Positions 16,837 through 20,006 of a stretch of DNA of 64,000 bases are shown piece after piece. Position 1 is the stretch's first letter. Each line of letters begins with the position of its first letter. This DNA is from an uncultured bacterium. Its GTDB lineage: Bacteria; Patescibacteriota; Minisyncoccia; Phycocordibacterales; CAIRYW01. The stretch covers positions 22,014 through 86,013 of the forward strand of contig CAVYBO010000002.1 in NCBI GenBank assembly GCA_963766885.1. Reading direction: 5' to 3'. Both the position numbers and the translations under genes were made by a program. The notes beneath the pieces are model-generated. The model did no database searches. It worked only from the letters and a program-made list of their open reading frames with translations, and was not told the origin of the DNA.

Positions 16837-17436
16837 TTAACGTCTTCGGAAAACTAGAGCTATTACACCCAAGGCAACGAATACGCAGTACAAAATGCTT
16901 GGCTCAGGCACGCTCATCTGGAGTGCGGGCGTTTGAGTTTCTGCTCCCGCGCTGATTTGCTGTAGAGCCGAAGTGTCTTTTGTGCTTGCAACGCTAACGT
17001 AATCGATCGCCCAAGTGTAGCTACCGGTAACCGTCGGAACGACATCGTCGAGGTTGAAGACAAATTCACGACTGGTGCCCTCTGGAATTACATACCAGAA
17101 TGCATCATCTCCGCTGATTGGAGTGGGAGCAAGCATGTCCGGATCGATGTTTTCTTCAGTGTCCAATGTTGGACTTGCGGCGACGCCGTTGATTGTGAAT
17201 GTGAATCCATCGTCACCGAGCGGAACTGATGCTCTGCGGACGTACTCAGTTTGGGTATCCGCGGAGATATTGATATCGATTCCGAAGTAACCCAATTCCT
17301 CGTAGGTGCTAGAGTACTCTGGTTTTTGCACCTCGTAGGAGGCGCATTCCGTCCAGTTCACGCTTACTTGGGTTGCGTTTGCCGAAGTGATTCCTACCCA
17401 AGAGAGTAGGACCAGTAAAGAATATTTAAAGTTCAT
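16837..17436 (-). CDS. PEP-CTERM-type secreted protein (signal peptide plus C-terminal VPEP-TM-RRR sorting signal), GC-rich
   Basis: Start at MNFKYSLLVLLSWVGITSANA (the ORF track extends further upstream); C-terminus ...VPEPSILYCVFVALGVIALVFRRR; local GC about 50% versus about 35% genome. Confidence 0.6.
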   Translation of the reverse strand: MNFKYSLLVLLSWVGITSANATQVSVNWTECASYEVQKPEYSSTYEELGYFGIDINISADTQTEYVRRASVPLGDDGFTFTINGVAASPTLDTEENIDPDMLAPTPISGDDAFWYVIPEGTSREFVFNLDDVVPTVTGSYTWAIDYVSVASTKDTSALQQISAGAETQTPALQMSVPEPSILYCVFVALGVIALVFRRR

Positions 17437-17470: not shown

Positions 17471-18523
17471 GTAAAGATACACGTATAGGTCCAATAGCTT
17501 GGCACCACTTTGGTGGGTTAACATCAAAGGTATGCCATACACAACAAATAAGAATATGCCGAAGATTAGGCAACAAGCAGCTGATTTAGTCAGAAGAGGT
17601 TGGAGCAGAAGAAAGGTTGGTCGATATTTGGGATTTCACCATACAGCGATATCTGAATGGGTCAGAATTGCAAAGAAAATAGGGTATCATCCCATACTAA
17701 CAAGATCATCAAGACCGAAACATCATCCCCAACAATTGGATGAAAGAATCATTAGAAAAATCGTGGAGAAAAGATTAGAGCATGGTCGATATGCGGAAGC
17801 GGTACACAGGGAGCTTCAAAACGATGGTGTGAAAGTTTCTTTGTCATCAGTCAAAAGAACTCTCGACCGGAAGAGACTCATCAAAAAGAGAAGTCCGTAC
17901 AAACGATTCCATCCTCACCAAGATCGCCCATATCCCTTGAAATCAGGCGATTTGGTGCAAATTGATACTATTCATCGGATGGTTGATGGAAAGAAAAGAC
18001 TGTACGTGTTTGTGGTCATTGATGTATTTTCAAGATGGACATACGCAAAAGCATTTGAACGGATGAATGCAAGAACAAGTATTGATTTTGTCAGAGCAGC
18101 GCAAAGAGAATCGTCCTTCCATTTTGATATGTTGCAGTCAGACCATGGACCAGAGTTTGGTAAGTGGTTTGTCTCAAATATCAAAAAGAGCCACAGGTAT
18201 ACCAGAATTGGCAAACCCAATGACAATGCTCATATCGAAAGATTCAACAGGACTCTACAGGAAGAATGCCTGGACAAAGTTCCTAACGATATTCGAATTA
18301 TCAATTGTGCTTTGAAGAAATATTTGAGATATTACAATTTTGAGCGAGTGCACGGAGGAATCAATTATTCAATTCCCATGCAGGTGGTGTGAAGCTATTG
18401 ATTAGATTACGGTATTCAAAATCTTTCGTACCAAGTTAATTGAATGGCAAAGATTTGGAGAGATGCTTTCTAAACAAGATTAGACGCTTGCAATATTTCT
18501 ATACTTTTGTACCATATTAAACA
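17471..18523 (+). mobile_element. IS481-family insertion sequence (putative ends)
   Basis: Transposase ORF flanked by imperfect inverted ends beginning TGT (17471 tgtaaagatacacgtatagg versus reverse complement of 18498-18523 tgtttaatatggtacaaaagtataga); ends are approximate. Confidence 0.4.
17499..18392 (+). CDS. IS481-family (DDE/rve integrase core) transposase
   Basis: N-terminal HTH (GWSRRKVGRYLGFHHTAISEWV), DDE triad (QIDTI, SDHGPEF, NAHIERFNRTL); the track start is TTG, internal ATGs at 17532/17556 are more likely starts. Confidence 0.8.
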   Translation: MAPLWWVNIKGMPYTTNKNMPKIRQQAADLVRRGWSRRKVGRYLGFHHTAISEWVRIAKKIGYHPILTRSSRPKHHPQQLDERIIRKIVEKRLEHGRYAEAVHRELQNDGVKVSLSSVKRTLDRKRLIKKRSPYKRFHPHQDRPYPLKSGDLVQIDTIHRMVDGKKRLYVFVVIDVFSRWTYAKAFERMNARTSIDFVRAAQRESSFHFDMLQSDHGPEFGKWFVSNIKKSHRYTRIGKPNDNAHIERFNRTLQEECLDKVPNDIRIINCALKKYLRYYNFERVHGGINYSIPMQVV

Positions 18524-18539
18524 GAGAGTACATTTAGAC

Positions 18540-18860
18540 CGAAAGCCAAGGCGGCGCACGCCGTCGAATGACGAGAGCGTAAACAAACGCAGACCAATAG
18601 CTAATGGTGGCAAGTTGCCATAGAAACGGATGGGGGGACTTGTTCCCGCTTATCATGTACCGAAGCTTTGGACGACAAGCTCTGCAGCTGTGAGACGTAT
18701 TCTCACATGACGTGGAGTGATTACTCAGGGATACTTAGTGCATCAATAGGTAGTTACGTTGGGGATTTCCGTCTCCTAGAGGCGGTCGCGTGGTAGGTCT
18801 TTTGTTTCTTTCTCTTTGAACCCTCGACGTTTCGGCGTCGGGGGTTCTACTTTTTATATC
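18540..18860 (+). ncRNA. candidate structured ncRNA (GC-rich, ORF-free, ends in an intrinsic terminator); identity unresolved
   Basis: About 320 nt at about 52% GC with no credible ORF, many local hairpins, terminal ccctcgacg-tttcgg-cgtcggggg hairpin plus T-run at 18819-18855. Confidence 0.3.
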
Positions 18861-18873
18861 TGTTTCCAAGTCT

Positions 18874-18963
18874 ATAAAATATCCCATTAGGTTGCGCCAA
18901 AAAACTATTAAAAAATATGAATAAAAAAAGCTGTGACCCAAGTGGTCGCAAATTGGAACCGAG
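18874..18963. repeat. direct repeat copy A: tRNA-Glu downstream flank plus decayed tRNA 3'-half (att-like)
   Basis: aaaatatcccattaggttgcgccaaaaaactattaaaaaatatgaataaaaaaagctgtgaccc... aligns at about 75% with 19364-19455. Confidence 0.5.
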
Positions 18964-19045
18964 TCTTGGAGAATATAAAGGTTTTTCAGGAATTTGTATA
19001 AAAAATTCGCCCATTTCTGAGCGATGATACTTCTTGGTGTTTATA

Positions 19046-19300
19046 TCACCTTGTCCGATGTCTATAGTGCGTACTCCTGTAGGCTACTGTTACCACCCAG
19101 AGAACCAAAGCCGTGATCAACACAACGATGGGGATAGTGAGTACAGGATTAACCTTGAGGAAGTAACAGACGGTACATACCAGAGCCCAGATCACCAGGC
19201 CAAACGGCGTAGCGAACAAGATGAAACAACTGACACCTATGAAGAACCCAATGAGCACAAGTCTCATTGCTGCCTTGTAGGAAGGATTTTGAATGCTCAT
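19046..19300 (-). CDS. small hydrophobic protein (2 TM), GC-elevated, between the att-like repeats
   Basis: 84-aa ORF with two clear TM helices; it overlaps a + strand ORF of poorer composition. Confidence 0.3.
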   Translation of the reverse strand: MSIQNPSYKAAMRLVLIGFFIGVSCFILFATPFGLVIWALVCTVCYFLKVNPVLTIPIVVLITALVLWVVTVAYRSTHYRHRTR

Positions 19301-19363
19301 AAATTCTGACCAAATTTAATCATTATTTTAGGAAAAGTCAAATTATATAGATTGATTCCAATT

Positions 19364-19455
19364 TTATAAAAAATCCCATTAGGTTGCTTCAAAAAACCTT
19401 TGAAAAATATGGTTAGAAAAATCTATGACCCTACCGGGAATTGAACCCGGATTTA
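19364..19455. repeat. direct repeat copy B (abuts and overlaps the 3' half of tRNA-Glu)
   Basis: ttataaaaaatcccattaggttgcttcaaaaaacctttgaaaaatatggttagaaaaatctatgaccc followed by the intact tRNA. Confidence 0.5.
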
Positions 19456-19497
19456 AGCCTTGAGAAGGCTCCGTCCTAACCGTTAGACGATAGGGCC
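19426..19497 (-). tRNA. tRNA-Glu (anticodon CUC)
   Basis: Manual cloverleaf: acceptor GGCCCTA/TAGGGTC, D-stem GTCT/GGAC, anticodon stem GAGCC/GGCTT with loop TTCTCAA, T-arm CCGGG-TTCAATT-CCCGG, 72 nt, no encoded CCA. Confidence 0.85.
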
Positions 19498-19609
19498 AAG
19501 TCAAACAATTTTACACAAAATCAAAGAAAAATCTATTTTAGATGAAACTTTTTGGTATGTGATACGATATAAAAAAGAGGTCTTTTTATTAATTTAATTT
19601 TAAAAATAT

Positions 19610-20006
19610 ATGAATAATAACAAAGTTGTGCATTTTGAAATCGTGGCCGTGGATCCTCTGCGAGCCACTGATTTCTATACAAAGGTTTTTGGTTGGGAAA
19701 TTAAAAAGTGGGAAGAAGGAGAAATGGATTATTGGATGATTTAACACTACTCCGCAAAATACTCCAGGAGCAATCAACGGCGGTTTGCGAAAGGAAATGG
19801 GAACAGATCACAAAGAAATGACTAAATCTGTAAATGGCTTTGTGTCCATTGTGGCTGTGGATTCTATAGATGATATATTAGGAAAAATAGAAAAATTCGG
19901 CGGAAAAATTATGCAGCCAAAAATGAATGTTCCAAAAGTTGGCTGGCTTGCGTATTGTATGGACACAGAGGGAAATATGTTTGGGGTATTGCAGCCAGAG
20001 ATGTAG
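19610..20006 (+). pseudogene. glyoxalase/bleomycin-resistance (VOC) family protein interrupted by a 1-nt frameshift near 19739-19744
   Basis: N-half [31 protein letters not shown]...DYWMI* (frame 2) and C-half ...TTPQNTPGAINGGLRKEMG...VDSIDDILGKIEKFGGKI...GWLAYCMDTEGNMFGVLQ (frame 0); removing one T in gaTTTaac joins them. Confidence 0.55.

Follow-up and report, generated by a model that had tools for sequence, protein, structure and literature searches.

When an integrative element enters a tRNA gene by a simple integrase event, the duplication is confined to the tRNA portion from the crossover to the 3' end, and does not extend to the trailer that follows. Integrase-less elements flanked by att sites, which are mobilised in trans, are known as cis-mobilizable elements (CIMEs). 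Tyrosine integrases that target tRNA genes (tDNAs) cross over at one of three subsites, namely the anticodon loop, the T loop and the T-stem/acceptor junction, and the Islander criteria for an island in a tDNA include an intact tDNA with a cognate displaced 3' fragment, a tyrosine integrase gene inside and a length of 2-200 kb (PMC4383910).

A different kind of repeat beside tRNA genes is represented by the tRNA-linked repeats (TLRs). The array at tyrT of Escherichia coli consists of 3.14 units of 178 bp, in which the unit opens with the tRNA 3' end and the array ends in a partial unit; no integration origin is known for E. coli TLRs of the tyrT type. The 178-bp repeats of tyrT were reported by Egan and Landy in 1978 (as cited in PMC8144298), and further TLRs are rrA, rrB and rrF. 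E. coli TLRs carry 18-19 bp at their 3' end that are identical to the upstream tRNA or rRNA gene, and 22 of them, with no known function, occur in strain K-12 (PMC8144298).

The locus described here lies in a chromosomal stretch of 64,000 nucleotides (64 kb), the whole of which is called the window, from a Patescibacteria (Paceibacteria-like) genome. It has a GC content of 38.5% and carries genes for MreB, MreC, PBP2, GreA, LysS, MraZ, RsmH, FtsI and MurF, followed by those for YqeY, RmuC, L21, RecR and DnaB. A first-pass annotation, made from the sequence alone, had proposed an attL/attR-type scar beside the tRNA-Glu gene of this stretch.

A direct repeat anchored on the 3' end of tRNA-Glu(CTC)

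The gene for tRNA-Glu(CTC), in which CCA is not encoded, is the sole tRNA gene of the window according to ARAGORN and Rfam. Two direct repeats, here designated copies A and B, are associated with its 3' end and bracket a short segment of DNA.

19426-19497, minus strand: tRNA-Glu (anticodon CTC), from ARAGORN and Rfam RF00005 (62.3 bits, with the structure line); the discriminator is the A of position 19426, followed by the 3' strands of the acceptor (19427-19433) and of the T-stem (19434-19438)
19353-19431, minus strand: repeat copy B (proximal), from repeat search, local alignment with shuffles and core pattern search
18861-18939, minus strand: repeat copy A (distal), from repeat search and local alignment with shuffles
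18940-19352, no strand assigned: bracketed segment of 413 bp, from composition and similarity searches

The copies are 79 nt long and align without gaps and in direct orientation, with 82% identity and a spacing (period) of 492 bp. The repeat announced by the first-pass annotation is real, but it had been described as about 90 bp at about 75% identity, at 18874-18963 and 19364-19455, and both extent and identity are replaced by the values given here. In pairwise local alignment the copies scored 88, while 2000 dinucleotide shuffles gave 19.5 ± 2.9 with a maximum of 36, and no other segment of the 64 kb scored above 42 against copy B. A 26-nt core pattern, for which no match was expected in a scan of the 64 kb, matched at copies A and B only. 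Both copies are AT-rich, as would suit a chance similarity of AT-rich intergenic DNA, the outcome that the first-pass annotation had named as fatal to its proposal; given the alignment score and the core pattern, the probability of this explanation is negligible and it was rejected. The core pattern search disclosed no further copies in the 64 kb, and a third copy at the edge of the neighbouring insertion sequence (18401-18460), plausible by eye, had an alignment score at chance level.

Read in the sense of the tRNA, copy B is made of GGGTCA, the last 6 nt of tRNA-Glu, and of 73 nt of 3' trailer. The hexanucleotide (TGACCC on the plus strand) is made up of the discriminator and of the five acceptor bases (3' strand) that precede it. 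Copy A also begins with GGGTCA, which is followed by the homologous trailer, and the preceding bases are CTT instead of the GTA found in the tRNA. Thus, the tRNA part common to both copies amounts to 6 identical bases, or 8 of 9 positions, and the remainder is trailer. Compared with the tRNA, copy A matches at 6 of the 7 positions of the acceptor 3' strand and at the discriminator, while the match at 2 of the 5 T-stem positions is at chance level. The side and the orientation of the repeat are those expected for a displaced tRNA 3' end.

That copy B runs into a genuine tRNA-Glu gene on the minus strand, as first annotated, was borne out by both ARAGORN and the Rfam match. The same annotation had seen in copy A a degenerate version of the tRNA 3' portion, with the T-arm, and this could not be reproduced. 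In anchored and free-end alignments of copy A to the tRNA, evaluated against shuffles and random genomic windows, the 25-66 nt beyond TGACCC aligned at chance (p = 0.14-0.97). Copy A gave no match to the tRNA covariance model of Rfam (E <= 10), even when presented as a truncated piece, and it was not retrieved by an Islander-style BLASTN search with the tRNA as query, which did find 15-nt fragments in two related loci (L011 and L042, see below). Since copy A resembles the T-arm only at chance level, the repeat seems to end at the T-stem/acceptor junction; the matches weakly suggest this position for its inner edge, with a precision of about ± 2 nt. A crossover at this junction would duplicate only 8 nt of the tRNA, and therefore no T-arm remnant would be expected from it.

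The bracketed segment and its neighbourhood

The further features of the locus are as follows.

19046-19300, minus strand: hydrophobic ORFan of 84 aa, from the ORF list
19034-19309, plus strand: overlapping antisense ORFan of 91 aa, from the ORF list; codon score 0.035
19007-19024, minus strand: terminator-like hairpin with T-run just downstream of the 84-aa frame, from a terminator scan
18530-18850, plus strand: GC-rich (51%) non-coding block of about 320 nt that abuts copy A, from composition and a codon test
17492-18400, plus strand: IS481-like insertion sequence, from Pfam rve and rve_3, a PHROG transposase match and an inverted-repeat pair

The 413-bp segment has a GC content of about 47%, compared with the 38.5% of the window, and its composition is foreign-like. 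No similarity was found between this segment and the DNA that flanks either side of the repeats. Comparison of the unit body with its neighbours at 18401-18860 and 19432-19900 disclosed no residual homology on the same strand, hence no trace of a tandem array. No intrinsic terminator was predicted by the terminator scan between tRNA-Glu and the 492-bp unit (19425 to 18934) that follows it.

The segment had been annotated as holding a small membrane-protein ORF. An open frame of 84 aa does exist, but its status as a gene, and with it the membrane protein, is unproven because it is an ORFan, its codon usage is unlike that of the host and the antisense frame is equally open; any annotation of a "membrane protein" between these repeats calls for caution. 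The GC content at third codon positions is 58% in this frame, compared with 33% in 26 host genes, and its codon log-odds of -0.31 is typical of non-coding frames, the host genes read in frame having 0.33 ± 0.11 with a 5th percentile of 0.15. The 84-aa frame belongs to no Pfam or PHROG family, and only the sequence itself was found in a word-indexed search of 5.8 billion proteins and in a full phmmer search of 1.84 billion representatives. Likewise, the 91-aa frame on the plus strand had no homologue besides itself in the index of 5.8 billion proteins and no PHROG family. For the 596-kb source contig, the gene called in the public NCBI/ENA annotation is an 83-aa version (100% identical) of the plus-strand frame, and not the minus-strand frame.

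The GC-rich block beyond copy A ends in a strong plus-strand intrinsic terminator of 13 bp (18818-18847), and its predicted fold is moderately more stable than that of shuffled sequence (z = -3.25). No coding frame, no Rfam family and no homologue in the related loci fetched were found for it, and searches of phages, plasmids and IMG/VR returned no match beyond those to tRNA-Glu. It is a candidate for either a novel ncRNA or a remnant of foreign DNA.

The IS481-like element includes a gene for a DDE (rve) transposase (17499-18392) and 26-nt terminal inverted repeats, and is separated from copy A by 460 bp. When its ends were read directly, no target-site duplication was seen, which suggests an IS-mediated rearrangement at the locus. 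The element is located just upstream of a gene for a PEP-CTERM protein (16837-17436, minus strand; about 50% GC), distant homologues of which (29% identity) occupy the same position after MurF in two related loci (L008 and L009) and are GC-rich for those genomes. An inverted repeat of 18 nt (18414-18431 and 19277-19294; 16 of 18 positions complementary) has one arm 14 nt from the end of the IS and a second that overlaps the 84-aa frame at its first codons; its score of 27 against a shuffle maximum of 26 is marginal.

The earlier remark that no integrase remains holds for the interval and for the proteins of the 64 kb that were scanned. No tyrosine or serine recombinase domain was detected in the 9 ORFs around the locus or in the 20 ORFs scanned among the 64 that have at least 130 aa; the other ORFs of this length were called housekeeping genes only from the first 90 residues read. 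The sole integration-related gene found is that for the DDE rve transposase.

On the other side of the tRNA, a frameshift near 19740 (at ...GATGATTTAACAC...) divides a gene of the glyoxalase/VOC family (19610-20006, plus strand). In L011 the orthologue is intact and encodes 129 aa. The split N-terminal ORF of 44 aa, up to and including its premature stop, is present without change on Logan contig L043, which was assembled separately and in which the next called gene is an ORF of 69 aa.

Related loci and their tRNA-linked elements

A scan of GTDB genomes with MurF found no close relative, and the nearest loci were recovered through MurF homologues that are 75-77% identical. The frame made of MurF and of the YqeY-RmuC-L21-RecR-DnaB series is kept in all relatives recovered, but each has a different MurF-YqeY interval. 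This interval carries tRNA-Glu(CTC) on the same strand as MurF in L008/L009, L011-L013 and L042, which represent three lineages, while the tRNA is absent in L006 and L041, for which part of the interval was recovered. The tRNA-Glu(CTC) of the window is inverted relative to every recovered relative that has it.

The flank (the repeated trailer), the insert and the GC-rich block were not found in the loci of the relatives. When the flank was compared with the tRNA-Glu flanks of relatives, the similarity was not significant, the single p value of 0.03 among 14 tests being expected by chance. Neither the flank nor the insert had a second occurrence in any collection searched (phages, plasmids, viral contigs of IMG/VR and related loci); with the flank, the first three returned matches to tRNA-Glu or nothing. 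No empty site was found in these collections or among the relatives, in which MurF is 75-77% identical, the tRNA has the opposite orientation and the neighbours are different. Comparison with the tRNA-Glu locus of related genomes, as the first-pass annotation had advised, thus established that the locus is rearranged and hypervariable, but provided neither an empty site nor a relative with the flank or the insert. The locus is clearly a hotspot of rearrangement.

The relatives contain a different element at the same tRNA. An element of about 150 nt, here designated X1, directly follows tRNA-Glu(CTC) in L011-L013 and L042, and a related element is present in L026.

L011, 11461-11619: X1
L042, 3493-3648: X1
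L026, 1868-1997: element related to X1

In L011-L013 and L042, the last 15 nt of X1 exactly match the 3'-terminal 15 nt of its own tRNA, and they vary together with it: beside a T-stem of the CGCGG/CCGCG type the terminal copy is CTCCGCGTAGGGTCA, and beside one of the CCGGG/CCCGG type it is TTCCCGGTAGGGTCA. The conservation of X1 between lineages was judged by eye from the alignment. Two hairpins were predicted, and 10 of the 35 predicted pairs have compensatory changes, among three sequences only. Base pairing between X1 and those bases of the terminal tRNA copy that correspond to the T-stem was considered and discarded, since the copy changes in L042 and the supposed partner does not. X1, for which Rfam has no family, agrees with the definition of a TLR, and does so much better than the unit of the window, as it shares 15 nt with the tRNA, is structured and has a length of about 150 nt. 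X1 and the motifs of the other elements described below are absent from the window. Indeed, X1 is the more interesting by-product of this work, although outside the window, as it brings the trait that defines TLRs to relatives within the Patescibacteria.

A metagenome scan with the tRNA 3' end retrieved Patescibacteria-like loci with a second, partial copy of the 3' end 190-230 nt downstream of tRNA-Glu (L016/L029, L026 and L038). Other structured elements were noted after tRNA-Glu(TTC) and tRNA-Val, in L016 (3530-3880), L029, L038 (71-301) and L039 (81-330 and about 1000-1120). These have in common the motif GTGA-N-AAG, a hairpin, GAGTCCGGGG and CRCGCGAAGCGTTCMA, and gave no match in Rfam. 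The 5' end of the element in L016 and L026 (GTGACCCTA) is complementary to the tRNA 3' end and to the second copy downstream. Last, the 21-nt 3' end of this type of tRNA-Glu was encountered with no tRNA gene upstream on GC-richer contigs (L019, L020, L023, L025, L028, L030-L032 and L034), and in L028, L030 and L032 a second near-copy is located 219 nt away. These loci may represent att-type fragments or TLR-like arrays in other organisms.

Origin of the repeat

Compared with a tDNA island (PMC4383910), the locus has a direct repeat attached to the tRNA 3' end, with the correct side and orientation, an edge at the T-stem/acceptor subsite, foreign DNA between the copies and a variable surrounding. 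It differs in that only 6-8 nt of tRNA are shared, so few that a tRNA query does not detect them, in that the repeat is mostly trailer at 82% identity, and in that the copies lie only 413 bp (0.41 kb) apart, against at least 2 kb in the islands, with no integrase gene between them. The fit to the crossover subsite rests on the acceptor and discriminator matches, with the T-stem at chance, and is weak. The idea of an attL/attR-type scar is therefore supported in part, because orientation, side and subsite agree with it, but the T-arm evidence quoted for it is at chance level. The shared trailer of 73 nt, in turn, requires one of three things, that is, a donor with a related trailer (as a long attP identity block or through a homologous single crossover), tandem integrations of related elements, or a local duplication.

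The first of these is tentatively preferred, with the repeats taken as the decayed and immobile relic of a single-crossover insertion by which a foreign stretch of about 0.4 kb came to lie at the 3' edge of tRNA-Glu(CTC). In its favour are the highly significant, gapless repeat with its inner edge at the T-stem/acceptor junction, the alien composition of an insert for which no homologue was found, the variable MurF-YqeY interval with its inverted tRNA, and the nearby IS, at which no target-site duplication was seen. A circular DNA with a segment homologous to the 3' acceptor strand of the tRNA and to its trailer would have met the chromosome and entered it by a Campbell-type single crossover, which may have been the work of a tyrosine integrase at the T-stem/acceptor junction or of homologous recombination by the host. 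As the repeat is mostly trailer, such a donor must already have carried a related tRNA-Glu trailer. The crossover would double the shared segment around the insert with no damage to the tRNA. Any integrase involved, together with most of the element, would have been lost later, and the copies would then have drifted to 82% identity; the locus would have been scrambled further by inversion of the segment with the tRNA and by insertion of the IS481-like element. The degree of divergence indicates an old event, of which the mechanistic detail is not recoverable. Against an insertion, the interval is much too short for any autonomous element, no tyrosine or serine recombinase was detected in it or among the proteins scanned in the 64 kb, and the collections searched gave neither an empty site nor a second occurrence of flank or insert.

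Insertion is favoured over a local duplication because the composition of the insert is foreign and there is no second unit body, while duplication remains a close rival because there is no integrase, the interval is tiny, the copies are only 82% identical and TLR-like elements occur in relatives. By this alternative, which is possible though rather doubtful, a unit beginning at the 3' acceptor strand of the tRNA gained a tandem copy through unequal crossing-over, slippage or rearrangement, with no integrase involved, and the distal copy was then truncated. The geometry suits it just as well, as the sequence after the tRNA recurs right after the distal GGGTCA to give 1.16 copies of a 492-bp unit, and copy A breaks off at the terminator of the GC-rich block, close to the IS. 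TLRs, which share the 3' end of the upstream gene, are a documented class in tRNA and rRNA operons (PMC8144298), and the nearest relatives (L011 and L042) have the TLR-like structured element with a 15-nt copy of the tRNA end after tRNA-Glu(CTC). Like an E. coli TLR, the unit of the window (19425 down to 18934 on the tRNA strand) is directly downstream of the tRNA and on its strand, starts with the tRNA 3' end, has a head that recurs after one period and holds a small ORF of doubtful significance. However, it shares 6 identical bases with the tRNA (8 of 9 positions), in contrast to the 18-19 bp that define TLRs and the 15 nt of L011 and L042; its body, within a unit of 492 bp, is compositionally foreign and not native; neither a trace of a second body nor a third copy was found; and the element of the relatives is absent from the window. 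A more speculative version, which is improbable, regards the 492-nt unit as the lineage-specific counterpart of the tRNA-Glu-linked elements of Patescibacteria, co-transcribed with the tRNA, its repeated head, which extends from the T-stem/acceptor junction across the trailer, being a functional signal of processing or recombination for the exchange of small cargo with no resident integrase. If this were true, cargo such as a membrane peptide or an RNA would be swapped at tRNA-Glu(CTC).

That the repeats are instead two tandem remnants of related integrative elements, flank B being the newer arm (19425 to 18940) and flank A the older one (from 18933 towards the IS, with the GC-rich block), would explain why the trailer is repeated rather than the tRNA. 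Both bodies are of about 0.45-0.5 kb, GC-rich and devoid of homologues, and tandem arrays at a single tDNA are known (PMC4383910). Yet this arrangement is unlikely, as neither unit has an integrase, the second has no terminal tRNA fragment and the two bodies have no similarity on the same strand. Also unlikely, and marginally less probable, is that the repeat is no scar but a functional module, such as a promoter, a leader or a protein-binding site, kept in two copies by selection. Conservation is indeed higher in the trailer than in the tRNA-like part next to it, promoter-like hexamers rich in AT are present in and beside flank B, upstream of the 84-aa frame, and a stretch of 17 nt resembles the region upstream of the tRNA itself. 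Against it, the differences between the copies hit the candidate -35 and -10 hexamers, a perfect run of 15 nt is expected by chance at 82% identity, the sole candidate hairpin of the flank loses a pair in copy A with no compensation, copy A faces the back of the terminator and is antisense to a non-coding block, and the 64 kb hold only the two copies.

Two other structures were considered and rejected. The repeat is not a transposon target-site duplication, being 79 nt long and 82% identical, with an interval that has no terminal inverted repeats, nor is the segment an integron gene cassette, as there is no integrase and no RYYYAAC/GTTRRRY pair was seen on reading the flank. The locus resembles a CIME in that a short cargo lies between direct repeats, at a hotspot of integration, and carries no recombinase gene; it differs from one in that no cognate integrase or parent element is known in the lineage and in that repeats at 82% identity are unlikely still to be substrates. 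Whichever reading is right, nothing suggests present-day mobility of the repeats.

The feature is thus probably best filed as a decayed, tRNA-anchored direct repeat in a variable locus, an ordinary one and not a working mobile element. Taken alone it matters little, and it adds one more case to the many that mark tRNA genes as hotspots of recombination; it also indicates that DNA beside tRNA-Glu is subject to turnover even in a Patescibacteria genome as small as about 0.6 Mb.
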